A DNA stretch of 64,000 bases, taken from contig CM082595.2 of NCBI GenBank assembly GCA_040954595.2, positions 8,290,317 through 8,354,316 of the forward strand, given 5' to 3'. Below are positions 7,501-44,741 of this stretch, piece after piece. This stretch comes from Balanoglossus misakiensis (taxonomy: Eukaryota; Animalia; Hemichordata). The notes beneath the pieces are model-generated. The model made no database searches, was not told the origin of the DNA, and saw only the letters and a program-made list of their open reading frames with translations. Numbering within the stretch: the stretch's first letter is position 1; each line of letters opens with the position of its first letter. Both the position numbers and the translations under genes were made by a program.

Positions 7501-7677
7501 CAGTAAAACCTGTCAAAACCAAACCCTGTCTAATCTGGAAACCTGTCTATACTGAACACCTTTTCAGTACCTTCGACATAGAATCACATGTTAAAAGAAC
7601 CTTTACAAACTGGAAATGTCTGTAAACTGAACAATTTCTTCAGTGCCTTCAGTGTTCGGTTCAGACAGGTTTTACTG
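7501..7677. mobile_element. short pogo/Tigger-like MITE
   Basis: TIR cagtaaaacctgtc / gacaggttttactg followed by TA. A related end occurs at 63335-63369. Confidence 0.7.
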
Positions 7678-7682
7678 TATTT

Positions 7683-8730
7683 AATTTCTCACACTGCTGG
7701 CCGCTGGGAGTGTGGGATAGGATATCCCCGACGAGTGTGAGAAATACGATCTCAGGTCCTTGGTAGACTGTCGACAGTCCCTCGCGCCTAATGTGTATCG
7801 ATACGGCGTTTCGTGCGAGGGCCGAAGGCCCGATTCGGCGTTTCGTGGTGCGAGGGCCGTGAGGCCCGAGGGACTGTTATAGCTTGTAAGCCTTGCCTTG
7901 ATATTAATTATGCATGCAGAAAATGACGTAGTAAAATTTGCATAAGGGGGCGTAAATCAGCGGCGAAACTATCGAAACAACTAAAACTATCGATGACGGT
8001 TCCTCGGTAAATTCGCCGATTCTGTCCAAGAGAAAAGGTGCGATTTCATAAGCCAAATTTCCCACTGCCCGTTGGCGACGCAACAAAAACATCTTTGCCG
8101 TTGGTCAATGAGTTTATGACGTATATTAACTGTCAATCATTTTACAGGGGCATTTTCCCACAGTGCCCGTGTGAGGGCGAAACAAGGTATAACAGTCCCT
8201 CGGGCCACGCCCTCGGGCCTTACGGCCATCGCACCACGAAACGCCGAATCGGGCCTTAGGCCCACAAAAGATACGGGCCTTACGGCCCTCGCACGAAACG
8301 CCGAATCGATACACATTAGGCGCGAGGGACTGTCGACAGTCTAGTCCTTGGGAGTGTGAGATTCTATTATTCTCACACTCTCACTGAATCAAAAGCTGTA
8401 TATGACGCGAGCGCTGATTGGTTGACAAAGAGTTCTTTCTCTTCGCGCACTAAATGTTATCCAATGGCGTGATGTGTATTACAGGCACAGAACTATAACG
8501 TGCCCCCAGACGACAGTTCCAGAGTCATTTATTCAATGTTTTAACGAATTTGGCTAATTTGTGACCGTGTGAGAAAAATAATCTCACACACCAAGGACCT
8601 GGGATCGTATTTCTCACACTCGTCAGGGATATTTTGTCCCACACTCGCCTGCGGCTCGAGTGTGACAGAAAATCCCCAACTCGTGTGAGAAATACGATCC
8701 CAGGTCCTTGGGAGTGTGAGATTCTATTAA
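7683..8730 (-). mobile_element. non-autonomous long-hairpin element (putative Crypton-type partner), interrupted by a MITE
   Basis: ~150-nt imperfect palindrome at 8580-8725 and repeated tctcacac/gtgtgaga half-sites. Reverse-oriented relatives at ~36100-36498, ~40420-40818, ~51000-51410 and ~61825-62150. Confidence 0.65.
7764..8343. mobile_element. MITE with TAG…CTA ends, long TIRs and 8-bp TSD (hAT- or Academ-like; superfamily uncertain)
   Basis: TIR tagactgtcgacagtccctcgcgcctaatgtgtatcgat… extends imperfectly for over 100 bp. TSD gtccttgg at 7756-7763 and 8344-8351. Confidence 0.85.
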
Positions 8731-9937
8731 TCCCAAATGTCATAGCAGCTGCCCCTTTAAAACAATTTCTTTAAAAAATGTGTTTCTAATAGATTTGGTC
8801 AGGTGGAAAAGTATGTCACATACTGTTTTCACTGAACACTGATGTGGTTGCAATTTTATTGACACAAATTGAATCACACTATGCATCACATTAGACTTAG
8901 GGGTAAACCATTTTATATTTAGGAGAGTGCAGTTTAGTTTCTACTCTGCCTATTCTCTGATGTTTTTTCTTTACTATTTGGCAGAGGCAAAATGCAGACT
9001 AGTTATGGAAGTGTTCCTAAGTAACTATGCATAAATTATTTCTATTAATCTAAGCACATTATGTAAAATATAAATCAACCAGGTAGACTCATGTCTCCCC
9101 CTACAGTAATGGTGACAATTCTTTTTATAGTACCCAACTTACTCAAGTAAACACACTTAATGTTAGAAAACAGTCCTATAGATATAGCCTGGTCCCCTGT
9201 CCCATTCCTGCTGCTGGTAGTGACAGCAGGGTTAGAAAGTGGGCAGAGAACAAGAGTATCTTACAGGCCTCTTTCATGACCCCTGTGTGACCTTACATCC
9301 TGGTGATTTGTTGGTTTGACATCATTCATCATTCAATGTTAAATACAACAGCTAATCTTTCTAACACAGGCAATGTTTAACAGTTTTGTTCAAGGATGAG
9401 AAAAAATGCATTGATTTAATAGCGTGGTTGGTAAACTCGAAATTGTATACTCACACCGACAAAAAGCCAGGATGTAGAGGTCAAAAGGGGTCATAAAAGT
9501 GGCATGATATAGCACAGTTGCCAGTGGTGTAATGTTTATATAAACTGTGCAACTTCATTCATATTTCTTAGTGGCAGTAATGTTATTATAAATATAAACT
9601 GACATCTGAAATCACTTTGCGATGTCGAAATTCAGTGGGAAGAAACAAACGCCAAAAGTTACCACATTTTATACTGACACTTATTTGTTTTGTACAGTTT
9701 ACCCTATGGATCCAGCTATCATAGGAATAGGTGCAATAATTGTAGCTTTGGTGGGCTGGTTGATCGCTTATGGGCTTGATCAATCATCCCATCTAGGCTA
9801 CAATTATTGCAGATATCATAGGAAGGGCACATTGGGAACCCCCCCCCCCCCCTCACACACACACACACACACACACACAATTTGGGCGACAACACAATAT
9901 ATATATATGATGCAGTCTACAAGTTGCACCGAAATAT

Positions 9938-21079: not shown

Positions 21080-21413
21080 GGTCAGCGATGTAAAGGAGTA
21101 GCTCTAAGTGAGCGCTGTTTAAGGCGCGGTGGGGACAGTAGGGGTTCGTGTGCCAGCCAATCATATGCTGTCTGAAGCCCGCCGGAGGGAAAGTTTCCCG
21201 GGCTTGTCATTGCCACTTTTGCATTCGGCGGAGCAGCAGGCTGGACACGGGACGCTATTCCCTTCCGTAGTGTCAAGCGACACTGACAGCGGACTGTACA
21301 TTTATTCAAGTGGTACACTTTGACTTTCACGATCCTTGAGACAGCGGAACTGACCCATTCAGAGGTATTGTCACGATTTCTGAGATTATCGCTAACCTAC
21401 CTTATCCACAGTT

Positions 21414-22760
21414 TTGAGACTTGGCTCGAACGCTCCCCCGATTGACACTGCTACTTTTGCCGCGTCGGACTGGCGAGAAAAAAGGGCAACGCTGAAGACA
21501 CCTCAAACGCTACCTACGGGTAGGCCCGTGCCTGATCCTTCGCTCGTTATATCTGGGTCTGTACCTGAATCAGTGCCCGCGCCGGACTCTGAAGTACAAA
21601 ACTGGGCCGATCAACATGGGATCTTACTGCCAACTCTGAATGTGTTAGCGGCCAACGGGTTTACTACGATGCAAGTGGTCAGATTAATTCAGCATGACGA
21701 TTTATATTTCATGAAGATATCTCCTCTTGCCCAGTTTCGGCAATTGGACGCAGCGCTTATCGAGCTTGCCTCACAGAAACGTACGACCGCTCGACGGGCA
21801 GATGTGGCGGGAGATCGAGATGCCACCCAAGTCGCTGACCGGAACCGTGCGCCCTCGCATACGACGGCCGGACAACAATACACAGACAACATGGTGGCCC
21901 CCAGTACATCAGACTCCCACGAAGCCAGTTCAGCGAGCGCGAAGACCGTCGACTCCGAACAGGCACAACAGGCAAGTCGAGGAGAAGTTGGACTGGACTC
22001 GCTGCTTCAGGCGTTGAATATCAACGCGGGACCACTGAACAATGACCTGACCCCGCCCAGGAAGATACCTCAGCGCATGGACTTAGAACAAATGGTGTAT
22101 TTAAAACCGGCGTCCATGGCAGGTTTGAAATTTTATGACATTGTTGACTATGTACCAAGCTCCCTACAGGCTAAGGTCGACCAAAAAGTGCTGGCCTTTG
22201 GAGCGGGGGAAAACAAACTGGTGTTTGAATCGGGTCCATCAAAACCAAAATTAGGGTCGGTGACCCCTCAGCAATGGTCTGCGGCCAACTCTCGCATTTT
22301 GTACGAACTCATTTCAAAGCACAATTACAACCTTACTCAAGTACAAGAGTATTCAGCATACACCATTAAAGTGTGTCAACTGGCAGACCGATATGAATGG
22401 GTGTCTGTTTTGCATTATGATCGGGAGTTCCGTAAACTACAAGCAGCCTATAATTTACCATGGGGAACTGACTCCCAACATTTGTCCACTGTGTATTTGA
22501 GGGAAAAAGGGGCAGTGCAAAACAAAGCATGGGGGTCATATCAGGTCAAAAATGGTAAGTCTACTTCTGCGGCGCCCGTTGATGTCAAGACAGGACAACC
22601 CATTTGTATCGGTTACAATAAAGGGGATTGCAAGTTCGGGGTAAAATGTAATTACAGTCATATATGTTTGGATTGCAAAAAGGGCCATTCCAAAATCAAC
22701 CACCCAAACTTGTCAGGGGGGAACCAAAGAGCGAGAACAAGCCGCTTCAAGGGTAACTGA
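21414..22760 (+). CDS. Ngaro ORF1 (gag-like) with C-terminal Cys/His zinc finger and putative N-terminal SAM-like domain
   Basis: 448-aa open frame with WVSVLHYDREFRK and CIGYNKGDCKFGVKCNYSHICLDCKKGH motifs typical of Ngaro ORF1. Start codon uncertain. Confidence 0.8.
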   Translation: MRLGSNAPPIDTATFAASDWREKRATLKTPQTLPTGRPVPDPSLVISGSVPESVPAPDSEVQNWADQHGILLPTLNVLAANGFTTMQVVRLIQHDDLYFMKISPLAQFRQLDAALIELASQKRTTARRADVAGDRDATQVADRNRAPSHTTAGQQYTDNMVAPSTSDSHEASSASAKTVDSEQAQQASRGEVGLDSLLQALNINAGPLNNDLTPPRKIPQRMDLEQMVYLKPASMAGLKFYDIVDYVPSSLQAKVDQKVLAFGAGENKLVFESGPSKPKLGSVTPQQWSAANSRILYELISKHNYNLTQVQEYSAYTIKVCQLADRYEWVSVLHYDREFRKLQAAYNLPWGTDSQHLSTVYLREKGAVQNKAWGSYQVKNGKSTSAAPVDVKTGQPICIGYNKGDCKFGVKCNYSHICLDCKKGHSKINHPNLSGGNQRARTSRFKGN

Positions 22761-24510
22761 CCTGCCCACCCCTCCCCCCTTCCCTTCAGCCTTACGTTAT
22801 GAAGCCTGGGTTACTGAAATTTTCCCCAATGACCCAGACAAAGATTTTATTCTTGACGGGATTGAACAGGGTTTTTGCATTGTCGATCCTGGTTCTAATA
22901 TCCGCCCTGCTGAGACAAATAATTACAAATCTGCAACGGACCCCTCATTTCGTGTTGCAGTGGAGGAACAAATTTTGGTTGAGTTGAGTGAAGGTCGTTA
23001 TGAGGTCACATCTGACAAACCAACTATTGTAAGCGCACTGGGGGCCATTCCCAAACAAAACTCTCCAGATGTTAGACTGATTCATGATTGCAGTCAACCG
23101 CCCAATTTTGCAGTCAACGACTATGCAACTAATCCTTCGTTTTCCTTCCAAACCTTTGGGGAGGCCACCAAATTAATTAAGCCAGGGTCCTTTTTAGCTA
23201 AGGTGGATTTGAAGTCTGCATACAGGTCTGTCCGTATCCATCCATCTATTAATAGTGCTACTGGGTTGAAATGGACCTTTTCTAACATGCAAGAGGCTAC
23301 TTATATGTTCGACACGAGGCTCCCATTTGGAGCCAAAAAGGCCCCCATCATTTTTCACCGTCTCACCCAAGATGTGCGTAGGATGATGCATCGCAAGGGT
23401 TATGTTTGTTTAGTGGTCTACCTTGATGATTTCCTCATTGTTGCAGATACTTACCAGGAGTGCCAAATTGCCCTGAACACCCTTATTTCATTGCTTCGTA
23501 AGTTAGGGTTTGCTATTGCTTGGGGGTAAGGTTGAGAGACCCACTCAACGGTTAGTATTTTTAGGTATTGAAATTGATACCCGCGCTTTTACTGTTGCCT
23601 TGCTGCTGCCAAAGCTTCATGAGCTTTATTCATTGCTGCTTATTTTTCACACAAAAACACGTGCATCCCGCCGCCAGCTGCAATTCCTTGCTGGGAAATT
23701 AAACTGGGCTTGCCAGGTCATTGTCGGAGGTAGGACTTTCCTCCGTCGCATCCTGGAATGCATTAATAATCTCCGCCAACCTTCTCATAAAGTTATCCTT
23801 GGTAGGGAATTTAAGGCCGATCTTGATTGGTGGATTCGCTTTTTACCACATTTTAATGGCACTTGCAAGATTCTGAATACAGACCCTATAACTGATGTGC
23901 ATACAGATGCTAGCAACACCGCTGCCGGTGCTTATTTTAGGGGGGATTGGGTGTACACCAGGTGGGCTGACTGGCCATCTACTTCACACTTCATATTAAT
24001 TACAAAGAGGTGCTGGCTGTTGCAGTGGCAGCACAAAGATGGGCACCTGTGTGGGCAAATCATAGAGTTGTAATTCACACGGACAGTATGTCTGCTATGG
24101 GTATGCTTAATAAGGGGACATGTCGCCATCCATTCATGATGTCTGTGCTTCGTTCTCTATTTTGGCTCTCAGCTTCTTACAACTTCAGCATTCAAGCAGT
24201 TTATGTTCCTGGTAAACTCAATCACATTCCTGATGCCATTTCCAGGTTGCATCAACCAGGTCAGTTCATGAGGTTGCATACACTGCTCCACCCTTATGGA
24301 GAGCTCCACCCCACCTTCACCTTAGCTAGCTTCCCACTTCACATGCCTTATACTGCTGCTACCTTTCTTACTCGTCAGATCCAGAGATCAAACAGCTGGA
24401 GGAACATCTGGATAGGGAAGTGGCCACATATAGAGGAAGTGCCTTTGCAGAAAATACACAGCGCACATACTCTGTCCACTGGAAGTCATACATCTCCTTT
24501 TGTGTTATGA
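22645..24510 (+). pseudogene. Ngaro ORF2 reverse transcriptase-RNase H, two frameshifts (~23526, ~23990)
   Basis: Motifs RLIHDCS, KVDLKSAY, LPFG, YLDDF, FLGIEID, TDAS, HINYKE, HTDS and NHIPDAISR are spread over ORFs 22960-23529, 23510-24073 and 24010-24510. The first frame is open back to 22645 and overlaps ORF1. Confidence 0.9.
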
Positions 24511-25385
24511 TGGGTTACCCCCCTTTGCCAGCCGGTAGTGACCTGGTTTGTCGTTACACAGCCTACTTAGCTCGCCGTCTAAAGTTCAACTCAGTGAAGC
24601 AGTATTTAAATATTATTCGTATTTTGCACTTAGAGCATGGCTTCGCCAATCCACTCCAAGACAATTGGCTGCTGACTATGCTGTTAAAGGGCATAGCCAA
24701 AGTTAAGGGAACTACAGTTGCCAGGAAGCTGCCTCTCACCCCCACATTGTTATTGGGCATTCACAGTCAGTTATGTTTTTCATCAGCCTTTGATTCTGTC
24801 TTTTGGGCAGCCTGCCTTGTGGGTTTCTTTGGGTTGCTGCGCAAATCCAATTTCTTAGTTCCTTCAGGCTCTAAGTTTGACCCAGACAAACATCTAACTA
24901 GGGCTTCCTTCCAGGTGCATGCATGGGGTCTCACCATCATTATTCAATGGACCAAAACGCTACAAACTCGGGATCGGGTTCTTCAAGTTCCTCTCCCATG
25001 GATTCGCAATCACCCATTATGCCCTGTTTCTGCAGTCCTTAGGGCATTTCAGCATTCTAAGGGGGCACCCCCTACAGGCCCAGCCTTTGTCATCCCTGCA
25101 GGTAATGGTAGCTTCCGCCCGCTCACTGTCCCACAGTTCACCTCAAAGCTCCGCACCCATCTTAGTCGCCTAGGGGTGCAGGTCAGTGAATATTCTTCAC
25201 ACAGTCTCCGTCGGGGAGGGGCATCCTGGGCAATACAGTGTGGGGTTCCCAGTGATATAATTAAGCTGATGGGGGATTGGAGGAGTGACGCATACCTTCG
25301 TTACTTGGTCCTCCCCCTCCCTTTCAAAGTTAACTCTGTTAAGCTTTGTGCCAAACAGCTTCCTTTTTCTACTTCTACATTGTAA
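24420..25385 (+). CDS. Ngaro tyrosine recombinase
   Basis: LLRKSN, TKT, CPV, SHSLRRGGA, GDWRSDAYLRY: catalytic R, K, HxxR, W and Y are all present. Confidence 0.92.
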   Translation: MATYRGSAFAENTQRTYSVHWKSYISFCVMMGYPPLPAGSDLVCRYTAYLARRLKFNSVKQYLNIIRILHLEHGFANPLQDNWLLTMLLKGIAKVKGTTVARKLPLTPTLLLGIHSQLCFSSAFDSVFWAACLVGFFGLLRKSNFLVPSGSKFDPDKHLTRASFQVHAWGLTIIIQWTKTLQTRDRVLQVPLPWIRNHPLCPVSAVLRAFQHSKGAPPTGPAFVIPAGNGSFRPLTVPQFTSKLRTHLSRLGVQVSEYSSHSLRRGGASWAIQCGVPSDIIKLMGDWRSDAYLRYLVLPLPFKVNSVKLCAKQLPFSTSTL

Positions 25386-27389
25386 GCAAGTTTTCTATGA
25401 CTACCACTACTATATTGGGTTTTTGGGAGAATTTTGTAGTAAACACAGACAGACTTCAACTGTCCATTAGTATGTGTTTTTGTCAGTATTAAAGTTTCCC
25501 CCAAAGTTGTGCCCAATTTGTGTGTCCCAGTGTGGTTTGTGTGTGAGAGCCAGTGTGCCTTAAGGAGTAGCTCTAAGTGAGCGCTGATTAAGGCGCGGTG
25601 GGGACAGTAGGGGTCCGTGTGCCAGCCAAACTTATGCTGTCTCAAGACCGCCGGAGGGAAAGTTTCCCGGGCTTGTCATTGCCACTTTTGCATTCGGCAG
25701 AGCAGCAGGCTGGACACGGGACGCTATTGACCCACCCTCCCACCACACATTCCAGGGAATTTCTGCCTGTCTTTGTTGCTTTATATTATTTATATTTATT
25801 GTATTTATTAAAAGCATTGTTTGTATGCTTTGCATTGTTTTCATAGTTCTTTTGATAGTGTAGTTTTCAGGGGGAGAATTTTGTAGTAAACACAGACAGA
25901 CTTCAACTGTTCATTAGTATGTGTTTTTGTCAGTATTAAAGTTTTCCCCAAAGTTGTGCCCAATTTGTGTGTCCCAGTGTGGTTTGTGTGTGAGAGCCAG
26001 TGTGCCTTAAACATTTCATACAACACTGCCTACTAACAATAGTCATATCAATCTGACAAGGGAAAATGAAAAAACACATCTTTTCAAACTAGCTTACTGT
26101 GCGGACCAATTTCATTAAGCTCCATTGAACAGCTATATTTTCTTGAATTCTGGTTTTATAATTAATTTTGATTGATTGACATGTGTTTTACATCTAAATG
26201 CATCGCTTTGGGAACATTTTCTCGTATGTATGAGATTATTAAATTGAACTTGTATATTTGCTGAGGGCAACTAAATGTTCAGTAAAGATGAGGAATGCTC
26301 AATGTTTGGATTGTCTTCAAAAAGATGACAACAACTCAAGTCTCAAAAACTCTTTGTTTTGAATTTTGAATTGTTTTTGTTGCATCAGTAACGACTTCAC
26401 ATGTGGATGCCACATTTTGATTCTTAGCAAATGTTGTATTTTGACAGAGAGGAGTCCATTCCTCAATCATATCACCCCGCAAACGGCCTGAACTCCAAAA
26501 ACTTAGCGACAAAGCGTGAAGTACAGATGGTACCTATGAAGGATTATGCGGCTGATCCACACCACATGATACTTCTCAAAGGTTATCAACTTGCTGGTAG
26601 GTATCTGTTGCTATGCAAATATTTGCTATCATACCATCCAGATTCTAAAGTTCACAGGTCAAATATATAACTTGTTTACGTGGCCATTTACAACCAATTC
26701 ATCATTTTGTGGTTTGTTAAGATTTTTATTACTCTAAATTGGTACTTCCATAAAATGGTTGTAATATTTATTACACATCACGTATTGTTATGCGCTCCTG
26801 GTTGGCTAATACTAAATATGACAGAACTTCATGACCTCTGCACACGATCTGAGGCTTAAGGAAGTTATTTTCGCGAGTGATGCAGTGTCTTCTGTTGCAG
26901 TACTTTCACAAGCCAAGCATTTTATTCCCCATCATTTCAATGCCTGGCCAATGAATTACACATCCTCCTGAAAATTGCTGGTAGGTGAGAAATCAGTTTC
27001 CATGGTTGCATCCTGGATGAAACACTGGTACAGGTTCAAGACAAGTTTAGTGATATTGTGTAAATCCACAGAAGAATTTCACATCAACTGTATAATCTTC
27101 TATTTTTCTCATGATTGTGTTTCAGAAAAATCTGTGTCAAGTGGTGATACATAAGAGGTTGCCATCGTGAAACCTAAAACCATAGCAACCACTTCAGTGT
27201 CTACAACCACTACCACAACACAGCCACTGAAACCCGCATCAACAGTTACCATGTTTACAGAATCTACCTCCAGTATGACCTCAAATCCTCTCAAATCAAC
27301 TGTTGGAAGTTCAACTCCAGGTAAAGTCTCCAGTGTTGCTTACGAGTCATTTGTCATAATTAGACCACCAAGTGAAGTGTGAGATATTG

Positions 27390-27581
27390 AACACCTATTG
27401 CCTGGCCATGAGGGCCATAGCGGCCGTTTATTACACCCGAGGGGCTGTGAGTTACCAGAATCACATGCTATTTCTCGAGGCCGTAGGCCGAGGGAAATAG
27501 CGTATGATTCTGGTAACTCACAGCCACGAGGGTGTAATAAACGGCCGCTATGGCCCGAATATAGGCCAGGCTATAGGTGTT
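27390..27581 (+). repeat. ~190-nt imperfect palindrome (hairpin) with GTA triloop at 27483-27485
   Basis: Arms 27390-27482 and 27486-27581 are reverse complements apart from a few small internal loops and mismatches. Confidence 0.95.
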
Positions 27582-27791
27582 TTATAATAAACCTCATGCT
27601 AACAGTTTATGTTTGCAATATTGAACAAGTTTAATTAAATACCTTGAATACGAAATACAATAAATTCAACATGAACGGATGCTATAACTCGAATAAAACA
27701 GCTTACGGCTTATTATAATGTAATATGCAAAATTTGGTAAGCTGACAAAGTACAACTTTTGACAGTCAATTGGCTTCGGATTCCATAAAGC

Positions 27792-29153
27792 CTAATTGTT
27801 GTGGATGTTGACGACGCATCCATGAAAGTTATAGTTCACTACTTTCTTACTACCGCTCACTTCTTGTTGAGTAACAAAATTAACCGGCGGCGGCGGAGAA
27901 GAAGTAGTCAGTTCACTCAGAAATGACCGTTGCAAGGGCGATGCCATTATCGGAGCTAGCGACGACTGCGGCTGTTGTATTGTTTGTGCGCCTTCTATCT
28001 GTTCGTTTGTCGACGAACTTCCTTGAATAGCACTGGAAAGTGTACGGCTCATTTCTCGCTTCTTGTCTTCACCAACTCTGCTATAACTTCTGATACTGGT
28101 CTCTGATTTGTGACCACTAACTCCCATGATATGCCGTGCCTCGAAGCCTTTGTCGTCCAGCGTTGTCACAGTGGTAGCACGCAAACAGTGGTTGGTGTAC
28201 GTACGAGAACATTCAGCTTCGACAGATATTTTCTTCATTTTGTCGGCGAGCGTATTTTTACCAACTGCTATGCTGTCATACCAAACAGAGTCATCTTGAC
28301 TTTTCAGTGCTGGTTTTGGTCGCTGCCAAAAAGCCTCAGAGTTTGGGTTTAGCTTTGTTAAATACAATTCAAAAGACCAAACTGGACATAGCGAGTTTTC
28401 AGGAGTCTCGTACATCCTCCCTCCTTGACTCATTTCCGCGTCGTCTATACAGCCACGGTGATTTTTCGTCAGCATATCTTTACAGAGCGACACATATTTC
28501 AGGCCCGTTGAATCACGTTGGACGACGAAGTGCGACTTCGTCATGTTATGTAGATTTTCGCGGCCGCGATTGCATAGATACATCATAATATCAACGAAAA
28601 CCTTGTTTTGTAACCCGCGTGGCGTTGACTTGTCAAGTGCAGACGACAACATCATTTTTGTCATGTCATCTTTGGTAACGGGTTCTTTATGTTGCGTTGC
28701 ACCCTTACCCTCGCCTTTCAGTTTTACAAGCATTGCAGTGAATACATCATTGGCAGGCTTGAAAATCTCACTGTGGATGATGTCGGTGCCGCACTGTTTC
28801 AGAAAATATCGTTGTAAGCCATATCGTATTGTTATCATTGACTTACTCGAATACAGCTGTGCGTTGTTCTGTCGAACCCCAGCGTAGAAATCCCGCAGCG
28901 TGAGACACAAATCGGCTGGCGCAGTCTTTTCCACGTCGGATATGGTAGTACCAATTTCTTCACAAAACGAAGTAAAAATCCTCATTGCGTATTGAATTAC
29001 ATATTTGGTGTTACGTGAATCCTTGTTGTCGACAAGGTGTTGCAGTTCTTGCTCCGACAAAAGGGAAAATCTTGCAATTTTCTCTTTAGGTTGGCATACG
29101 ACATCTTCAGCGGTGGCCATTGTGCTAGCAGACGATGCGACGCTGATTGACAT
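27792..29153 (-). CDS. Crypton-type tyrosine recombinase (DUF3504; related to the KCTD1/ZMYM/QRICH1/KIAA1958 domain), 453 aa
   Basis: CNRGRE, TKNHRG, CPV..FELYL, FWQRP, WY…VGKNTL, YTNHCLRAT, SGHKSETSIRSY: full R-K-HxxR-H-Y set. Intronless and uninterrupted. Confidence 0.92.
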   Translation of the reverse strand: MSISVASSASTMATAEDVVCQPKEKIARFSLLSEQELQHLVDNKDSRNTKYVIQYAMRIFTSFCEEIGTTISDVEKTAPADLCLTLRDFYAGVRQNNAQLYSSKSMITIRYGLQRYFLKQCGTDIIHSEIFKPANDVFTAMLVKLKGEGKGATQHKEPVTKDDMTKMMLSSALDKSTPRGLQNKVFVDIMMYLCNRGRENLHNMTKSHFVVQRDSTGLKYVSLCKDMLTKNHRGCIDDAEMSQGGRMYETPENSLCPVWSFELYLTKLNPNSEAFWQRPKPALKSQDDSVWYDSIAVGKNTLADKMKKISVEAECSRTYTNHCLRATTVTTLDDKGFEARHIMGVSGHKSETSIRSYSRVGEDKKREMSRTLSSAIQGSSSTNEQIEGAQTIQQPQSSLAPIMASPLQRSFLSELTTSSPPPPVNFVTQQEVSGSKKVVNYNFHGCVVNIHNN

Positions 29154-29159
29154 GACCCT

Positions 29160-29250
29160 GTGACGTCACGTTGGTCACGTGACCGGTTTATATTTTTTCT
29201 GCTATTGCCCTATCGGTTCATAGTCGATTCTATTTTCCTATCACGTGACG
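29160..29250 (-). promoter_or_regulatory. candidate internal promoter of the Crypton-like ORF
   Basis: TATAAA on the minus strand ~35 nt before the ATG, TGACGTCA at 29161-29168 and two TCACGTGA palindromes (~29175, ~29242). Confidence 0.35.
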
Positions 29251-30129
29251 GATTCTGGCGAATCACGGCACAGTATTAGCATGAGGTATATTATAAAGTA
29301 GAATATTGCCATGTTGATCTTCACTACAATATTAGTTAAAGTTATATAGCACTCTGTGATCAACGAGTTGAAAATACAGCATGAGCTGTAGTCCCCTTCA
29401 TCAGCTGTACACGTAGAATGAACAGAGAAACAGAGAATCATGGGGTATTCAAAGTAGGAAATATGTGCAGGACCAGGTGCATCGATCAGAAATATTTCCT
29501 ACAGTGGATTTTCTATCTGAGGATGGTGACTTCATGACCGCGATATTGTGCCCTTGAGCGAGGCACTTTACTTCTCATTGCTCTTGGGAGACTGGCTTTG
29601 TAGAGGTGATTTGCACCTGTTCTAGTCTTTCTACTAGACAAATTTTCTGTGTTTGCGATTGATGAATTACTGTCTAATGGGAAATTTTTGTAAACTTCGC
29701 GAGAACCAACAAATGCGAATTAAAAAGTCATATAAAAATGTTTTTCAGGGATATTGGTGCAGTTAGTGAAATATAAGAATGCGAAATTTAATTGTAGCAT
29801 AACAGCTGTCTCTATTGATATTGCGAAAATTTCTTGTCACAGAAATTTCCCGTTTTACAGTTCATAAATAAATCAACTAGATCTTTTTACTGCAGATGCC
29901 ACACCAACTAATCATCTGTTACCTGGACGACCAAGTCAAATTGGAAGTCAGTCTCCACAACAACTGTCATCCTCTCAACAGAAACTGATTCAACCAAGTC
30001 AGCCCCAGATGCAGGGCCAAGGTCAAAGGTCATCAATGCCTTTTGCCCAGCCTACCAGTTTACCAAACCAACCAGTATCCACTGTCACAGCAAACAGGAC
30101 TCAACAACCCAATGTGACTGTTTCAAGTA

Positions 30130-31318: not shown

Positions 31319-34300
31319 TATCCCCATGAGACAATTTTGTCCACCCAGGTACAGTTGTGGTCTACCTTCTACTTTTTGAGATTCAAATTAGCTGTTTCTA
31401 GTTACCCATCCTGTGAATTGAAAGCTTTTTATGACTGTATCACATAGCCTTGTCTTACCATTGTCTACACAGTAGACTATTTATTTTCAAAACACATTCA
31501 AAACTTCTGTTTTGGTTGCAAAAAAGCCACTCTGTAAATGGAAAGACTCTTTGGATAATGCCACAGACTCATTAATCAAATTCAAGTTTTAATGTGATTA
31601 ATGTTGATAAGCCCTAAAACCTGATCCCTTCCAAATGTGAGTATGTGTGTTGAAAATAGGACTTTGAGAATTGTAAGCTCAACATCGATTCAAAAATTGA
31701 AGTCATGAATTAAAAAATGTGGTTTTGAATACTGGTCTTGATAATGCTTCATATTAACTAGGTTTGTTACTCTTTTTGGACAGGCAACTTCACCACCAAA
31801 GATGACTTCCCAGCATGTGCCAGCTGCTGCACTGAAAGCCACAGAGGGTGTCATGCAAATGGCAAATGCTAGTCAGTTCAGTAAGATGCCACAAATTGCT
31901 GCTGTGAATTCTATCAACTAACAGCCACAGCAGAGATGGCCAGGTACAGATTCAAAGCCACAACGAGGTAGGTACAGTCAAACCTGTCTACAGTGGCCAG
32001 TCAAGGGACTTTCCTAAACTGGCATTTATAGACAGGTGGCTTCTATAGATAGGTCAGTTAATGTGCAATGTACATGTACATGAAATGAAACAAAGTTGCC
32101 ACTATAATAGAGGTGGCCACAAACACAGATTTGACTGTCATATATGTTATGTTGCCATGGCAGTCATTTACCATTAGTTTGAATATACTTTGCCAAAACC
32201 TGAGGAAAAAATATTCAAGTTCCCCTTTTCGTATTCCCCTATCAATGGTATAATACAACAGTGTCATGGTAAAATTTTGTGACATTTTTGCTAACTGCTA
32301 AAGCCCAAGTAACATTGTTTTTTTCAGTATTTTTCAGCGAAGGAATTAACCGTAGTTTCTTGTTCTGCTATGGATAGCTTTATGAAATGTTCAGTCTTTA
32401 GCTTCTATACAAAACTTGTACATGAGTAATGGCCATTGTGAATATTAAATGAACTCAGACGAGAATTCATTTTTCAACAATAACAATGCTGATCAATATA
32501 TAAAACGCCTTTGTTTGAAAACCAAACTCTGAATAAATTCTTAATGTTTTACAGAGTAGAATAAAGCTGATATCCAAAGTTAAGGTTGAAGTTATTGACG
32601 TTTTAATACTACTGTGTTTACTTATCAGCAGGTATGCAGTCAACGATGCGAACAGGAGTGCAGTCAACACAACCGACAGTACCTAATGTGAGCGACAGCA
32701 AAATCCACCTGTCACCACTGGCACCAATGTTGTTCCAACTCTGACACAGCCACAAGTACATGTACAAAACCAGTCATTGGTATGTTATGTTATGAGCTGA
32801 GTTGTAATACCCACCTATCCCTTTTGCCTGGCAAGTGACAGTTTATCACTTTTCAGTATTTCAATGGAACTGTATTTGGATAATTTGTTACCTAACATGA
32901 CATCAGAAGATGGCAGCTTGATGTCTTAACTGAGGACATTGGATGACCAGTAGATAAAGATTTTCTTTGATATCAATGACATCAGACGCAGTTCCGTTGG
33001 CATCAAATTTCCAGCTGACGGGGAATTTCAGCAACGTGGTGCAAATGACGACTGTGCAGATGAATACCAAGATGCTGTTGAGGCACCATGCCTGATACAT
33101 ATTACCTGTCTGGTGGTTCTAAAGTATAAACACATCCGGAAAAAAATATTTTACGGGATACCAATTGTGACAAATTATTCCCATCTTGTTATAAATCTGA
33201 GCCCAGGTGTCTTTGGTGTGAGATTCCAGTAGTCAAGAGTAGGCTTACCTTGAATAATGTAATGCTTGTAAATAATTTCTAATTTCTTCTTACCCTCCAG
33301 ATATGAATGTCACAGTGGTGGAAATGCGTGCCAACACTATTGTCAGAATACCCATGGTAGTTATCTCTGCGCTTGCAGACCAGGATTCTATCTGCTGGAG
33401 GATGGCTATGCATGTGGCGGTATGTAACTGTGGATATTGATCTCTTCTGTGGCTACACTGTTTGGGGATTGTATATTGCTATGGTTACAATCAGCTAAAC
33501 ACACATCCTGTCAGTCCATTGCACACATTTTAAAATTTGAAATCAACCGCACACTCGTACTGAACACATGTTTGTTGAAATTGTATCTCAGAATTTTTCC
33601 ATTTATAATTATGCATAATATAAACAAATTAACAAATGTGAAATTTTATCTTTGAAAATTTGTTTGCAAGGGTGAAAAAGTAATCTGTTTTTTTAAAAAT
33701 CAGACAAAGTTTTGCTGACAGGGTACACGAGTTTCAGGGGATTTTGTTAAAATGAGTACGGGCAAATCAACAGCTATCAATGGATGCACCACAGGAGTAG
33801 GTGTTGGTTCAAAACGCCTTTGGTACTTACAATCGTCCGGATCATATCAAAACGCGATGTGTTTGAATGCGACTGCATTTACTGACATCGAGAATGGCGG
33901 CCACATTGTGATGACCGCGTCGACCGATGCGCGCGATGAACGTACGTGACTGACCTCCATTGTCATGATCTTGCGTGTTTTGATATCTGCACGTCATCTC
34001 TGACGCATAAAGTAGTCGGAACAGCGAAAGGTTTTCACAAATTTTGTCAAAACTGCGTCGAAATGGCTTTCCGACATTGACTTCCGTGTCTACGCTGTGG
34101 ACTCACTAAGTATGACTGTTCAATGACGTTTTATGAATGGACCAATCCGGTTACGTATGGTAATGCGTCCCGGGTCAAAAGTCAAGTATTGTACTTCGGC
34201 CAGTAAAACTTGCAAGGGTTGTAGATTGCGGTGAATAAATATAAATAAATCGTGGAAAATTTGTATTAAAATCGTGATCTCTAAAAAAAGAGTGAGAACT

Positions 34301-37300
34301 TGATTTTGAGTGATATTGCAGTACAAAATTACAAAAAAATACTTTTTATTCCTTGGGGAAGTGTTAATTATTCAGAAAAAAAATATATTCTGAAATTTTC
34401 CAACTTCAGAATTTTTCCAACTGCAACAGAGGATATGATTATTTCATCAACTAACATGTAAAAGTTATTTAAAAAGTCAACTATGTCAATTAATGCATTA
34501 TCTGGAAAGATACCTTTTACGTGTCATGAATTACTATAGTTAATATATAGATAAAGGCCTTCATGCAATATTACATACACCAACACTTCATTTTGCAGTA
34601 CGTGAGCTGCGGTGTACTGGCTTTTGCACTTGTCTGAGCTGCAGAAAGTCTTATCATATTGAAATTTACAGAAGGCATTGTTCCCTGCTGTTTTAGAGCT
34701 GTGAGTTAACTGCGTAGAGCTGCCGTTTGTCTACACAATGTTCTAAAAAAGCTGTCAAAGAGAATTTGGTCTGCTGCCAACAAATGACAGCTCAGAACAA
34801 CCATTGCAGACCTGCAGATGAGCTGTGGATAGCTGACTCAGCTCTAAATCAGAGCTGCAGCAGCTCTCTGCAGATCTGCAGGTTTGGTAAGGGATGTAGA
34901 TGGTGAAAGGACGTGACAAGACTCGAATCTGAATCAGAATATGAATCTTGGGCTGTGGAACGTGAAACGTGAAACTTGAAACGTGAATCTTGTATTAGGC
35001 TTACCCTAATTTTTAATGGGTATATTCTTGATAACTCATCACCATGAATGATCATTTCAAAACTTAACAAGGCATATGGCTAAAGAGGATTCAGTGTTTG
35101 TGCACCTTCTATCTGCAATGCTGGATCTATTGACAGTTTTCAAAGGGGTTTAAAGACTCGTCTTTTTATTCAGTACTTTCTATTTCATTCCATTGCTTTT
35201 TTGGTTAATAGGGACTGTCTTTCAGAACTCTTTGGTTTGTTTCGTGTTTTTAAGTGTAATTTATTATCCTTTAAGCTTTCACTTGTTTTCTAATTTTATT
35301 ATTTTCTGTAGAAAATGCACTGAGATGTATGTGTATTATGTTTGTCAGGAAATAAATAATAATAAAATTAAAAATAATAAACTGTCTTTGATTTCAGATG
35401 TCAATGAATGTATGGAGAGAGCAGATCTTTGTGAAGGCCAGTGTGTGAATACAGCAGGCTCTTTTTATTGCACTTGTGTTGTGGGATATTGATTGGTCAA
35501 TTGAGAGTGTACAGGTAAGACCAGCACAATATGTGGGCAAAGAAAGGTCCTGTATCTGTAACTTTTGAATTTTTATTCAATATTATTCTGGGTGTCACCC
35601 ATCATTTCTTGTTCAGCTCGGTGAAGCTAGGTCTGTAACTTTTGAATTTTTATTCAATATTATTCTGGGTGTCACCCATCATTTCTTGTTCAGCTCGGTG
35701 AAGCTAGGTAAGCAATGTTGTTATTGTTTAAACATTGTATTCAAGCCTGGGTCTGGACTTGGATGCAATTTGTCAATAATAACAGTGATTGGTAACTGCA
35801 TGTTTACATAACTGGCTAACTGTTAAAAAGACCAGCTGTTCTATTTGGTGTGTGTACAGTACACATGCCATTGGCAGCTTATGGCTCAGTCAGTGTTTGC
35901 CTGTTGATTTCTCTATGTGTGTGTGTCTGTCTGTCTGTATATGTACTCCGGTGTAGACTTTTTTATTGTGTTATCCCTGAATGGGACCACTGTGTCCTTA
36001 ACGCGATGTTTTACACTCAGCAGCGATATTTTGTCTAACACGAGTCAAAATATCCCCAACTCGTCTGAGAAATCTTATCCCAGGTCCTAAGGTTGTGAGA
36101 CTAATAGAATCTCACACTCCCAAGGACTTGGGATCATATTTCTCACATGTGTTGAGGATTTTCTGTCCCAAACAAGCTGCAGGCGAATGTGGGACAAGAT
36201 ATCCCCGACGAGTGTGAGAAATACGATCCCAGGTCCTTGGTTTGTGAGATTATTTTTCTCACACGGTCACAAATTAGCCAAATTCGTTAAATAAATGACT
36301 CTTGAACTGTCATCTGGTACATTGTAGATTCAGTATCGCGTCATTGGATAACATTTAGCACATGTTGTTAAAGAACTCTTTGTCATCCAATCAGCGCTCG
36401 CATCATATACAGCTCTCGATTCAGTGAGAATGTGGGATTGATTTGTTCTCACACTCTGATCCAACACTCTCAGCATGCCAGGAGTGTGAGAATCTATTAC
36501 GAGTTTGAAATCTTAGGTGAAGAGTTTATCAATTTCACTGCCAACCCTGTAGGGCATTCTGGGATATGTGTTCATGCCAAAGCACAAACAGCCATGACCT
36601 GACAGCTCAGTTTGTAGATCATTTCTACAAATCCACAAAGAGACTCAAAGTTTAGAAATGTTGTGTCGGTTAGAAATATTAGACGTATCACTGTTAATAC
36701 TTTATTTCAAAGCCATGTGAATTTGTTCACATTAGGGAAATTTTTTAAAGGAAGGGAGGATTGGTATTGACTTGAATAATTACAATGGATGTATTGTCCA
36801 CCTCTATATAGTGCCCACTTTATTCTAGTCCCTGTGTAATTTATATCTACATTAATTGACTTTTCTACCAGGTATAATGGCCACCTGTCTATAAAGGCCA
36901 GTTTAGGAAAGTCCCTTTACTAGCCATAATGGACAGGTTTGACTGCACTTGTGTTGATTTCTGTCTGTAATATGTGTAACACAATCATAAAATTTTTCAT
37001 AAAGAGGGCACACTTCCAAAATAAGGTGTCATCTCCAAGCAGACAATGTGAAAAAGGAGGCCGGTAGGTTACAGAGTACTGCTCGAGCTCATCTACTTTG
37101 TTGTATACATGATACAAGTTGCGTGTAAAACTGACCTTACAATAAAATGTGGCTGTGGAAAGTCTGTCCCAACTATAGTGTTGATACACAAGACAAAGTT
37201 TTTACTCTTTGACCAACTGGCCTCATGTTTGCGTCTTGGAAGGGCACCCTCTTTATGAAAAAGGCATATGATATCACTACAAGGAATAAATTAACATGAT

Positions 37301-37862: not shown

Positions 37863-38874
37863 CACAAATGCCTGACAGTGATATAACTATGTTATAATGT
37901 TACATCGACAATACATACGTTTGGGGATATGTTGTCTCAAATGATCAAATTGAGACAAATTATCCCCATCTTGTTATAAATCTGAGCCCAGGTGTCTTTG
38001 GTGTGAGATTCCAGTAGTCAAGAGTAGGCTTACCTTGAATAATGTAATGCTTGTAAATTATTTCGAATTTCTTCTTACCCTCCAGATATGAATGTCACAG
38101 TGGTGGAAATGCGTGCCAACACTATTGTCAGAATACCCATGGTAGTTATCTCTGCGCTTGCAGACAAGGCTTCAATGTGCTGGAGGATGGCCATGCATGT
38201 GCAGGTATGTAACTGTGGATATTGATCTCTTCTGTGGCTACACTGTTTGGGGATTGTATATTGCTATGGTTACAATCAGCTAAACTCACATCCTGTCAGT
38301 CCATTGCACACATTTTAAAATTTGAAATCAACCGCACACTCGTACTGAACACATGTTTGTTGAAATTGTATCTCAGAATTTTTCCATTTATAATTATGCA
38401 TAATATAAACAAATTAACAAATGTGAAAACTTATCTTTGAAAATTTGTTTGCAAGGGTGAAAAAGTAATCTGTTGTTTTAAAAATCAGACAAAGTTTTGC
38501 TGACAGGGTACACGAGTTTCAGGGGATTTTGTTAAAATGAGAATGATAGAGAGTGTTAAAATTCCTAGATTCTGAGATTGCCATGGATATTGAGGACTTT
38601 GACGTAAAAACAATTAATTGATCAAGAAATATGTGGTTAAGTATATGTGTGATCAACCTCACACTATACTATATGACTGTCTGATATATTTATGCACAAG
38701 TACAATGTATTTTCACTACTTATATGCATAACTCAATCAAATTAACATAATTTATCGACCTATAGCTAAATAAATTACCACAGCAAAGAATAAATATACA
38801 CTTAGAAAATTCATATAGTTTTCATCTCATTTTAAAGAAATTATAAATGCTTCTCCGAGGGGTACAATAATTTT

Positions 38875-39401: not shown

Positions 39402-42400
39402 ATTTTTAATGGGTATATTCTTGATAACTCATCACCATGAATGATCATTTCAAAACTTAACAAGGCATATGGCTAAAGAGGATTCAGTGTTTGTGCACCT
39501 TCTATCTGCAATGCTGGATCTATTGACAGTTTTCAAAGGGGTTTAAAGACTCGTCTTTTTATTCAGTACTTTCTATTTCATTCCATTGCTTTTTTGGTTA
39601 ATAGGGACTGTCTTTCAGAACTCTTTGGTTTGTTTCGTGTTTTTAAGTGTAATTTATTATCCTTTAAGCTTTCACTTGTTTTCTAATTTTATTATTTTCT
39701 GTAGAAAATGCACTGAGATGTATGTGTATTATGTTTGTCAGGAAATAAATAATAATAAAATTAAAAATAATAAACTGTCTTTGATTTCAGATGTCAATGA
39801 ATGTATGGAGAGAGCAGATCTTTGTGAAGGCCAGTGTGTGAATACAGCAGGCTCTTTTTATTGCACTTGTGTTGTGGGATATTGATTGGTCAATTGAGAG
39901 TGTACAGGTAAGACCAGCACAATATGTGGGCAACGAAAGGTCCTGTATCTGTAACTTTTGAATTTTTATTCAATATTATTCTGGGTGTCACCCATCATTT
40001 CTTGTTCAGCTCGGTGAAGCTAGGTAAGCAATGTTGTTATTGTTTAAACATTGTATTCAAGCCTGGGTCTGGACTTGGATGCAATTTGTCAATAATAACA
40101 GTGATTGGTAACTGCATGTTTACATAACTGGCTAACTGTTAAAAAGACCAGCTGTTCTATTTGGTGTGTGTACAGTACACATGCCATTGGCAGCTTATGG
40201 CTCAGTCAGTGTTTGCCTGTTGATTTCTCTATGTGTGTGTGTCTGTCTGTCTGTCTGTATATGTACTCCGGTGTAGACTTTTTTATTGTGTTATCCCTGA
40301 ATGGGACCACTGTGTCCTTAACGCGATGTTTTACACTCAGCAGCGATATTTTGTCTAACACGAGTCAAAATATCCCCAACTCGTCTGAGAAATCTTATCC
40401 CAGGTCCTAAGGTTGTGAGACTAATAGAATCTCACACTCCCAAGGACTTGGGATCATATTTCTCACATGTGTTGAGGATTTTCTGTCCCAAACAAGCTGC
40501 AGGCGAATGTGGGACAAGATATCCCCGACGAGTGTGAGAAATACGATCCCAGGTCCTTGGTGTGTGAGATTATTTTTCTCACACGGTCACAAATTAGCCA
40601 AATTCGTTAAATAAATGACTCTTGAACTGTCATCTGGTACATTGTAGATTCAGTATCGCGTCATTGGATAACATTTAGCACATGTTGTTAAAGAACTCTT
40701 TGTCATCCAATCAGCGCTCGCATCATATACAGCTCTCGATTCAGTGAGAATGTGGGATTGATTTGTTCTCACACTCTGATCCAACACTCTCAGCATGCCA
40801 GGAGTGTGAGAATCTATTACGAGTTTGAAATCTTAGGTGAAGAGTTTATCAATTTCACTGCCAACCCTGTAGGGCATTCTGGGATATGTGTTCATGCCAA
40901 AGCACAAACAGCCATGACCTGACAGCTCAGTTTGTAGATCATTTCTACAAATCCACAAAGAGACTCAAAGTTTAGAAATGTTGTGTCGGTTAGAAATATT
41001 AGACGTATCACTGTTAATACTTTATTTCAAAGCCATGTGAATTTGTTCACATTAGGGAAATTTTTTAAAGGAAGGGAGGATTGGTATTGACTTGAATAAT
41101 TACAATGGATGTATTGTCCACCTCTATATAGTGCCCACTTTATTCTAGTCCCTGTGTAATTTATATCTACATTAATTGACTTTTCTACCAGGTATGATGG
41201 CCACCTGTCTATAAAGGCCAGTTTAGGAAAGTCCCTTTACTAGCCATAATGGACAGGTTTGACTGCACTTGTGTTGATTTCTGTCTGTAATACGTGTAAC
41301 ACAATCATAAAATTTTTCATAAAGAGGGCACACTTCCAAAATAAGGTGTCATCTCCAAGCAGACAATGTGAAAAAGGAGGCCAGTTGGTTACTGTTGGAG
41401 TACTGCTCGAGCTCATCTACTTTGTTGTATACATGATACAAGTTGCGTGTAAAACTGACCTTACAATAAAATGTGGCTGTGGAAAGTCTGTCCCAACTAT
41501 AGTGTTGATACACAAGACAAAGTTTTTACTCTTTGACCAACTGGCCTCATGTTTGCGTCTTGGAAGGGCACCCTCTTTATGAAAAAGGCATATGATATCA
41601 CTACAAGGAATAAATTAACATGATAGAACATTGCTGATTAATGTCATAGATCATGATAACATGAATGCATAGCAATGTTTTGGTACAATTTGGTACATAA
41701 AGAAATGGACTACTGTGACAGTATTGACTCTGGGCACTACGTAGATGATTCCCAGCCTCAAAATTCTGACTTGCTTCACCGTTGGAAGAAGTCAGTTTTC
41801 AGGTTAACATGTATATTTGTACAGAGTGTGGCATTAGTGAGTGGTTGCATCACATCAATGCATGATAAAAGGTCATCACTGTGTAAGACTCAGAAATAGA
41901 ATTTGAATACAAATCCTATTAAACAAAATATTCTAAAATTTACATGTTATTTTAACACCTGTTTACTCCTATAAAAGTGAGTGCACGTGTTTTCGAGGTC
42001 TCTTCAATTCAGAAGCCACTGTGTAGGCCTTAGTTGGTGCATGCAGCTCGTAGACTTAGAAATTAAGTTTGGTTCAACTCAAACGCTTCAAGTCCAGTTG
42101 ACCATCTCACACTTCTGACACTGGTGGGATTCAAACCAACTTCATCGAAATGACTGCAGGTGCCTAAAACCCCTTGACTGTAGGACACAAATGCCTGACA
42201 GTGATATAACTATGTTATAATGTTACATCGACAATACATACGTTTGGGGATATGTTGTCTCAAATGATCAAATTGAGACAAATTATCCCCATCTTGTTAT
42301 AAATCTGAGCCCAGGTGTCTTTGGTGTGAGATTCCAGTAGTCAAGAGTAGGCTTACCTTGAATAATGTAATGCTTGTAAATTATTTCGAATTTCTTCTTA

Positions 42401-44741
42401 CCCTCCAGATATGAATAAATGTCACAGTTGTGGAAATGCGTGTCAACACTATTGTCAGAATACCCATGGTAGTTATCTCTGCGCTTGCAGACAAGGCTTC
42501 AATGTGCTGGAGGATGGCCATGCATGTGCAGGTATGTAACTGTGGATATTGATCTCTTCTGTGGCTACACTGTTTGGGGATTGTATATTGCTATGGTTAC
42601 AATCAGCTAAACTCACATCCTGTCAGTCCATTGCACACATTTTAAAATTTGAAATCAACCGCACACTCGTACTGAACACATGTTTGTTGAAATTGTATCT
42701 CAGAATTTTTCCATTTATAATTATGCATAATATAAACAAATTAACAAATGTGAAAACTTATCTTTGAAAATTTGTTTGCAAGGGTGAAAAAGTAATCTGT
42801 TGTTTTAAAAATCAGACAAAGTTTTGCTGACAGGGTACACGAGTTTCAGGGGATTTTGTTAAAAAGAGAATGATAGAGAGTGTTAAAATTCCTAGATTCT
42901 GAGATTGCCATGGATATTGAGGACTTTGACGTAAAAACAATTAATTGATCAAGAAATATGTGGTTAAGTATATGTGTGATCAACCTCACACTATACTATA
43001 AGACTGTCTGATATATTTATGCACAAGTACAATGTATTTTCACTACTTATATGCATAACTCAATCAAATTAACATAATTTATCGACCTATAGCTAAATAA
43101 ATTACCACAGCAAAGAATAAATATACACTTAGAAAATTCATATAGTTTTCATCTCATTTTAAAGAAATTATAAATGCTTCTCCGAGGGGTACAATAATTT
43201 TTAGGGTAAGCCTAATTCAAGATTCACGTTTCAAGATTCACGTTTCATGTTCCACAGCCCAAGATGCATATTCTGATTCAGATTCCAGTCTTGTCTAATA
43301 TGTTTATGCTGCCGTAACCAGGGGTGTGAACGATTGTTTATTGTCCTCGATCCCCGCCCAAGCAAGGTTCCCCAAATATTGAAATTTACAGAAGGCATTG
43401 TTCCCTGCTGTTTTAGAGCTGTGAGTTAACTGCGTAGAGCTGCCGTTTGTCTACACAATGTTCTAAAAAAGCTGTCAAAGAGAATTTGGTCTGCTGCTAA
43501 CAAATGACAGCTCAGAACAACCATTGCAGACCTGCAGATGAGCTGTGGATAGCTGACACAGCTCTAAATCAGAGCTGCAGCAGCTCTCTGCAGATCTGCA
43601 GGTTTGGTAAGGGATGTAGATGGTGAAAGGACGTGACAAGACTCGAATCTGAATCAGAATATGAATCTTGGGCTGTGGAACGTGAAACGTGAAACTTGAA
43701 ACGTGAATCTTGAATTAGGCTTACCCTAATTTTTAATGGGTATATTCTTAATAACTCATCACCATGAATGATCATTTCAAAACTTAACAAGGCATATGGC
43801 TAAAGAGGATTCAGTGTTTGTGCACCTTCTATCTGCAATGCTGGATCTATTGACAGTTTTCAAAGGGGTTTAAAGACTCGTCTTTTTATTCAGTACTTTC
43901 TATTTCATTCCATTGCTTTTTTGGTTAATAGGGACTGTCTTTCAGAACTCTTTGGTTTGTTTCGTGTTTTTAAGTGTAATTTATTATCCTTTAAGCTTTC
44001 ACTTGTTTTCTAATTTTATTATTTTCTGTAGAAAATGCGCTGAGATGTATGTGTATTATGTTTGTCAGGAAATAAATAATAATAAAATTAAAAATAATAA
44101 ACTATCTTTGATTTCAGATGTCAATGAATGTATGGAGAGAGCAGATCTTTGTGAAGGCCAGTGTGTGAATACAGCAGGCTCTTTTTATTGCACTTGTGTT
44201 GTGGGATATTGATTGGTCAATTGAGAGTGTACAGGTAAGACCAGCACAATATGTGGGCAACGAAAGGTCCTGTATCTGTAACTTTTGAATTTCTATGGCA
44301 TAAATACCATACCTTTGATCCAACCTATAGCCTAATATATCTCGCCTTCTAACGACCGCTGAGATAAAAAACTTTCCCCTGATTACGTCATACTCACCGA
44401 TTACATATACCACCTGTCCAGCCGTGAATATTCAGTATTATTATCTCAGCACGAGACAGCGGACATCTTCTCTCTTGAGGTGTTGGATTTTTGTCAAGAA
44501 GTGCTCAGCCCTTCGACCATTGCTGCTTTTCGCCTGAGGTTTTTCGATTGGGGAAGTAGATAAGTAACGACTTATTTTCTAAACTGCTTGCTTGTGTTAT
44601 TTTGGCACTTGCAAAGTTTGTTTTTCGGATTTTTCCCACACGTGTACGGGTCAGTGTGTAGGGCTTCTGCGGTATTGTCTTTTCATATAGCCTTCAGAAG
44701 CCATTTTTGCCCGTGCATTTTTTCGTGTTTTCACTGGAACC

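Follow-up and report, generated by a model that had tools for sequence, protein, structure and literature searches.

A high-copy, non-coding transposon family in the hemichordate Balanoglossus misakiensis carries at its ends the same geometry as elements that encode a DUF3504 tyrosine recombinase (YR). On balance we favor the reading that it is a non-autonomous passenger of the CryptonA type, integrated as a folded single strand. The family was studied in one 64,000-nucleotide stretch of repeat-rich animal DNA (the window, whose positions are used throughout). An earlier note on this DNA had already suggested that it may be a passenger of a related Crypton-like YR, which is supported by the lack of duplication at two insertions and by the geometry of the YR elements.

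Anatomy of the Element Family

The family was delimited from the window sequence and from the depth of contigs from three sequencing runs of one sample, which do not count as independent support for one another. There were 1,806, 1,750 and 19 contigs on 7560-8900, and 1,033, 1,029 and 7 on 40370-40860. The full-length element, of about 390 bp and with no ORF, is represented by 40422-40812 (391 bp), where contig depth drops at 40421 and past 40811; depth also drops at 8730, the 5' end of a shorter copy that we call unit 1. Summed contig depth suggests a rough order of 10^3 copies, although summed depth is not a copy number.

On the strand with the GA:GA pairs (the GA strand), the order is a 5' TA, a 152-nt hairpin, TTCTCACAC, a body that includes a CCAATCA box, a small second hairpin and the 3' end GTGTGAGAA. 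The parts are as follows.

8370-8729, minus strand: unit 1, a variant with a short 3' end, 360 bp, no ORF; contig depth falls at both ends
8728-8729, minus strand: 5' terminal TA, unpaired when the joined ends are folded (empty-site joint 7685->8730, tandem junction, and a register skipping two bases best, at 12/14)
8576-8727, minus strand: 152-nt hairpin with two opposed GA:GA pairs (fold and arm-to-arm alignment)
8644-8658, minus strand: apex, with a GA:GA pair, a 3-bp stem and a cGCAg triloop (majority letters at 8659 and 8663 perfect the flanking stem)
8567-8575, minus strand: subterminal complement of the 3' end (TTCTCACAC), 9/9
8415-8421, minus strand: CCAATCA box near the 3' end; YR elements also have one near their 3' end
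40746-40812, plus strand: 3' module, consisting of a second hairpin with an 11-nt stretch (40766-40776) complementary to the 3' terminus in its loop

The nine nucleotides of TTCTCACAC abut the hairpin and pair at 9/9 positions with the far 3' end, GTGTGAGAA, so that the half-site complementary to the far end, noticed earlier, is where it had been placed. One arm of this 9-bp inverted pair sits 155 nt inside the element, and there are no classical terminal inverted repeats. The 3' module is present in the full element and absent from the copy at 8.5 kb. The contigs also contain a hairpin-less variant (joint 40439->40575, where 3 nt stand in place of 135) at roughly six times single-copy depth, which is probably one deletion inside a duplicated segment.

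Hairpin Fold and Strand Polarity

The minus strand of 8576-8727 folds with a minimum free energy of -60.9 kcal/mol (z = -13.4), and 0 of 200 shuffles were as good. The apex reads C-GA-GCC-GCA-GGC-GA-G at 8644-8658, and an outer GA:GA pair is formed by 8681-8682 opposite 8620-8621; the minus-strand stem, cGNAg loop and opposed GA:GA pairs of the earlier note are all present as read. That note had also called this the strand that folds well, with the same polarity as in the YR element. The polarity of the GA:GA and GNA motifs is indeed that of the YR element, but the computed energies of the two strands are nearly equal (-60.9 versus -59.5 kcal/mol), and folding energy was rejected as evidence of polarity. 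The complementary strand carries TC:TC mismatches in place of GA:GA, and the energy model gives no credit to GA:GA and GNA motifs. Because folding energies do not separate the strands, strand polarity rests on the chemistry of these motifs: d(GNA) loops with a closing C:G pair have unusual stability (PMC3201870), and tandem sheared G:A pairs form in CGAG contexts or blocks (PMC10085684).

At 8659 and 8663 the majority contig letters improve the apex stem, and at 40572 and 40574 common letters (40% and 60% of depth in run X1) improve the hairpin base, in each case in the direction of perfect pairing. The window copies are thus decayed forms of a family that folds better.

Pairs of the half-site in the arrangement TGTGAGA-N5..10-TCTCACA occur nine times in the window and 0 times in 100 shuffles. 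Such pairs had been proposed as YR core sites. They are real, but the one at 8354-8378 marks where two units join head to tail, and the one at 8568-8588 is the hairpin base plus the subterminal complement; the difference between their spacers (9 and 7, respectively) is the two unpaired 5' bases.

Copies and Insertion Footprints

The other family copies in the window, and the features of the composite of unit 1 and its neighbor, unit 2, are:

36102-36492, plus strand: full-length copy, 391 bp, CpG-decayed
40422-40812, plus strand: full-length copy, a segmental duplicate of the 36.1 kb copy (390/391 identical)
51005-51404, plus strand: full-length duplicate of the 36.1 kb insertion
61827-62166, plus strand: 3'-truncated duplicate of the 36.1 kb insertion
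36009-36101, minus strand: older, inverted family copy, its 5' end hit by the 36.1 kb insertion; it resumes at 36493-36499 without duplication
7686-8369, minus strand: unit 2, left by deletion from a copy in which the hairpin core had been inverted, and interrupted by a MITE; true 3' terminus at 7686-7694
8354-8378, minus strand: head-to-tail junction, the 3' end of unit 1 (GTGTGAGAA) joined to the 5' TAATAG of unit 2 (five X2 contigs have this short 3' end before a 5' start)
7764-8343, no strand assigned: hAT-like MITE inside unit 2, not of the family, with an 8-bp target duplication (7756-7763 and 8344-8351)

The copies at 36.1, 40.4, 51.0 and 61.8 kb have left flanks in common (265-296 matches of about 290-300), and three of them also a right flank. 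They are therefore one insertion multiplied by segmental duplication, and the independent family loci in the window number two. The decayed copies listed earlier at ~36100, 40420, 51000 and 61825 do exist, but as this single duplicated insertion.

Both insertions could be compared with an empty form, as the earlier note had suggested for the absence of a target-site duplication. The joint 7685->8730, found in two X1 and two X2 contigs, has a short side of 92 letters and no letters common to the two sides; it is the empty form of the 7686-8729 composite, with the target TTTGGGAT/A (slashes mark insertion points) and no duplication. This joint is flagged "between: not known", but record 16 matches 8730 from its letter 93, which implies that no extra letters are present. 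Likewise, removing the 36.1 kb insertion restores the 5' end of the older copy with nothing repeated, the target being GTTGTGAGAT/T. Thus no target-site duplication was found at either of the two independent insertions, judged from paralogous or reconstructed empty sites. The targets (T/A, T/T and A/T) resemble the element's own 3' end, GTGTGAGAA; at these few sites the ends are fixed and there are no variable T runs.

These footprints bear on whether the family might be a decayed MITE of a DDE superfamily, or a chance palindrome that owes its copies to segmental duplication alone. Four of the window copies do duplicate one insertion, and the subterminal and terminal 9-mers do form an inverted pair. 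However, the larger runs place 1,000-1,800 contigs on the element, where depth changes sharply at the edges, the inverted pair does not enclose the hairpin, and the terminal inverted repeats at both termini and fixed duplication of a DDE MITE are lacking, whereas the MITE nested in unit 2 shows such a footprint (8 bp). The empty-site joint 7685->8730 largely refutes this explanation, which we regard as extremely improbable.

The junction at 8370/8369 has the sequence expected of a circle junction. Unit 2 goes back, by deletion, to a copy in which the hairpin core had been inverted: of its inner 24 nt, 20-22 agree with the reverse of the 3' arm and 16 with the 5' arm, in this single case. The terminal inverted repeats of the hAT-like MITE (7764-8343) start with TAG, and it has subterminal mini-hairpins of the form GA-stem-GNA/GNNA-stem-GA, on opposite strands at its two ends, that resemble captured Crypton apexes. 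Because of these, the apex motif by itself is not specific. Decayed older relatives of the family hairpin lie at 37916-38010, 42242-42333 and 33167-33226 (E values from 2.5e-5 to 0.013), in duplicated segments.

The Same End Geometry at YR Loci

The window contains a YR element of its own:

27388-29296, plus strand: autonomous Crypton-like element, 1,909 bp, with a hairpin at 27390-27582 (plus strand) and a DUF3504 YR ORF at 27792-29153 (minus strand)

DUF3504 was detected in this ORF with an E value of 8e-11, its closest named relatives are from echinoderms and bivalves, and residues R196, H322, R325 and Y357 are invariant in an alignment of 44 relatives. The element is inserted at AT/AG without duplication, with paralogous empty sites at 15.6 and 17.2 kb. 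Its target (27376-27387) has GTGTGAGA, the family half-site, upstream of the insertion point and two bases off register, which is either chance or a hint of a shared enzyme preference. The family core is G-rich (GTGTGAGAA/TAATAGA), whereas that of the window's YR element is AT-rich (..TAA/TNAACAA), and because the cores differ the family's YR is probably not the window's.

An alignment-based scan gave 80 metagenome YR loci (the best 80 of 324), forming 49 clusters at 80% DNA identity; a scan of viral contigs gave one weak locus, which was excluded from all counts. A palindrome of at least 60 bp was present downstream of the YR ORF at 25 of the 50 loci with at least 600 bp there (the other 30 of the 80 were too short downstream for this count), and upstream at 6 of 36. 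Among all 80 loci, a downstream hairpin was present in 29, which belong to 18 clusters. Scored by arm-to-arm alignment, GA:GA occurred on the ORF-antisense strand in 13 of these 18 clusters and on the mirror strand in 0/18, compared with 1/13 unrelated palindromes of the window; a stricter test, which called for three Watson-Crick pairs on both sides of GA:GA, gave 0 for the family itself and for the window's YR element as well. The apex matches were on the ORF-antisense strand in 13/13 cases, and the apexes of YR loci were mostly cGNAg. Several related GA:GA hairpins are stacked downstream of one YR ORF (L032:3333-4222), as self-nesting predicts.

Where the far end of a YR locus is present, it complements the stretch right after the hairpin and ends in AA. 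The 3' end finished in AA in 9/9 element sequences, and the complement starts with TT beside the hairpin, with 8-9/9 positions paired. When the ends are joined, they fold with exactly two unpaired bases: a 2-nt skip gave the best pairing in 9/9 sequences (11-13/14, against 4-9 for the next best), with 13/14 for the window's YR element, L012, L013, L005 and L020, and 11-12/14 for four family copies. This test was anchored on the subterminal complement, and its nine sequences do not include L017. In an unanchored test the 2-nt skip was ahead by only 1-4 matches for the family and failed for L017, which has an indel in the complement. The independent tests amount only to the family, the window's YR element and L012/L013, because for L005 and L020 the 5' start was chosen visually. 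The boundaries of the L012 group come from flank divergence in five loci; the flank pairing of L014/L016 looks chimeric, for which reason these two loci were not used to reconstruct empty sites.

The extra 3' hairpin of the family was not seen as such in YR elements. A 17-nt apex stretch is common to L080 and the family, but family sequence and YR loci have no likeness beyond the apex (best E = 0.43). Since the YR elements match in geometry and not in sequence beyond the apex, what they have in common with the family is structure rather than sequence, which bears out the corresponding claim of the earlier note. No YR locus with the family's ends, and hence no autonomous partner combining a DUF3504 YR with these termini, was found in the window or among the 80 metagenome loci; the G-rich family core was present in 0/80, the YR-linked cores being AT-rich. 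Scans for the family pattern returned 0 and 0 in viral contigs and 0 in GTDB genomes; six GTDB pattern matches were rejected as chance, with no similarity beyond the 20-mer, and the near matches TTTCTCACACGG in L064/L069 and L044 were set aside since they are not in hairpins.

The geometry can be weighed against the classical model, in which a Crypton passenger moves as a double-stranded circle; the junction GTGTGAGA-9 nt-TCTCACAC would then be the YR core, and the hairpin would serve for a cruciform or as a replication or transcription signal. This is the published model (PMC3212892; PMC13565253), clean excisions have been seen for a CryptonF (PMC9977147), and at the family's head-to-tail junction 9 nt are flanked by a perfect inverted pair of 11 bp. 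Yet in the YR elements the plain junction has no such inverted symmetry; only when it pairs with the internal complement does an inverted pair arise, with the same 2-nt register. Nor has the strand-asymmetric GA:GA (13/18 clusters) an obvious use in a duplex. We consider the double-stranded circle unlikely.

A main rival, a non-autonomous Helentron or Helitron2 (HINE, DINE-1-like) moved by an HUH Rep/helicase, also draws on the ends. Read in reverse, the layout starts with a 5' TT and shows subterminal inverted repeats, an additional inverted repeat close by and a stem-loop at the terminus. HINEs are described with subterminal inverted repeats, terminal palindromes and no target modification (PMC4067079), and Helitron2 with hairpins at both ends and a starting T (PMC8969392). 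Like HINE/DINE-1, the family is non-coding, with subterminal inverted repeats, a stem-loop at one end and no target modification; it has hairpins at both ends and tandem units, and its extra 3' hairpin recalls Helentrons. The palindromes of HINEs, however, are 5-10 bp long, lie 8-35 bp from the end and go with T runs at TT targets (PMC4067079), whereas the family has a stem of about 70 bp, in a 152-nt hairpin 2 nt from the end. Its hairpin is thus an order of magnitude longer and terminal, and in place of TT targets and T runs it has T/A, T/T and A/T targets with fixed ends, at few sites. There is no RepHel ORF in the window, and in other genomes this exact geometry goes with YR ORFs. These differences make a Helentron quite improbable.

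Assignment and Proposed Mechanism

Judged by its sequence, the family very probably belongs among CryptonA-type passengers. It shows no target duplication at two events; it lacks classical terminal inverted repeats and its targets resemble one terminus (TTTGGGAT/A and GTTGTGAGAT/T, against GTGTGAGAA); and it has the end geometry of the YR-encoding members (5' TN, a GA:GA/GNA hairpin and a complement of the 3' ..AA), a criterion derived here and not taken from print. Given membership, the folded-strand route is likely. Points against our reading are that no partner was found among the loci searched, the near-equal folding energies, the few insertions, the 25 of 50 longer YR loci without a hairpin, the hairpin-less variant, the apex-like motifs of the hAT-like MITE, and the Helentron-like layout seen in reverse.

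In the route that we infer, one strand would leave as a circle, its 3' end (..GAGAA) joined to the 5' TA. The junction would pair with the internal complement by the hairpin to give a double-stranded-like recombination site with two extrahelical bases, and the sheared GA:GA pairs and cGNAg loop would stabilize the GA strand and not its complement. A trans-acting YR would exchange one strand with a genomic target resembling the 3' half-site (GAT/A, GAT/T, GAA/T), and replication would resolve the junction. One-strand exchange with replicative resolution would lead to copy gain, no duplication, self-nesting and tandem units.

By analogy, the geometry is compatible with an attC-type site, in which a YR acts on one folded strand set by extrahelical bases; integron YRs use folded single strands with such bases (PMC2727003). 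Integron attC and CTX phage attP resemble the family in their imperfect inverted repeat, strand asymmetry, extrahelical bases, use of a YR and reliance on structure over sequence (PMC2727003; PMC9345347). The family differs in being eukaryotic, in a site that would be complete only once the element's ends join, in its GA:GA pairs and GNA triloop, and in having no bacterial integrase. The proposed route may also be likened to that of bacterial YR elements that circularize one strand and leave the donor filled (strand-biased circularization, PMC9345347); those elements have four core genes and a 6-bp coupling sequence, and no long terminal hairpin is reported for them in the passages cited. A bolder version, which we hold to be doubtful, is that animal Cryptons are eukaryotic counterparts of integron cassettes: the YR would read the shape of the folded strand, so that one enzyme (possibly the window's YR) would move passengers unrelated in sequence, and copies with an inverted core, like unit 2, would record hairpin-primed replication of a free intermediate.

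Animal Cryptons are reported to be without terminal repeats, and non-autonomous Cryptons are known (PMC3212892). The family is like them in its animal host, in its lack of target duplication, and in that, gene-less and high in copy number, it accompanies a DUF3504 YR element whose ends are laid out in the same way. In that paper, though, derivatives share sequence with a partner, whereas the family has a hairpin and subterminal complement, and no such partner was found. According to a 2026 review, which assumes a double-stranded circle, the transposition of Cryptons still lacks experimental demonstration (PMC13565253). The words "hairpin" and "palindrom" are absent from the portions consulted of a 2026 CryptonA paper (PMC13465315), and our literature search, which covered openly available articles including the classification table of PMC4455052, returned no description of the end geometry.

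Certain Eulor entries carry a remark on hairpin formation, so curators may already know part of this geometry. Eulor5/6 have been classed as Crypton (PMC5753468).

Other Features of the Window

A hairpin at 9727-9816, with many G-U pairs on the plus strand (-54 versus -37 kcal/mol with RNA parameters), is pre-microRNA-like; it has no Rfam match, and an Rfam search of the window returned none. There are two YR retrotransposons with gag-like, RT, RNase H and YR frames: the one at 21093-26010 is Ngaro-like, with split direct repeats (21093-21259 = 25562-25728; 25425-25563 = 25872-26010), and the one at 44290-49951 is DIRS-like, with inverted ends. Recent segmental and tandem duplication is extensive (14.3-19.9, 26-32, 33-44, 50-54 and 61-62 kb) and includes a 4.3-kb repeat (99% identity) and a 1.6-kb repeat (99.9%), which could be assembly or haplotype duplicates.

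Implications

The precise, conserved end geometry provides defined substrates for a first Crypton assay and a rule by which gene-less Crypton families in animal genomes can be recognized and delimited, and the different core of this family is a natural test of shape versus sequence recognition. Excision has been proposed for the Crypton class (PMC9977147), and the folded-strand route would account for copy gain in such a class. If true, it would extend tyrosine recombination on folded single-stranded DNA to eukaryotic transposons.
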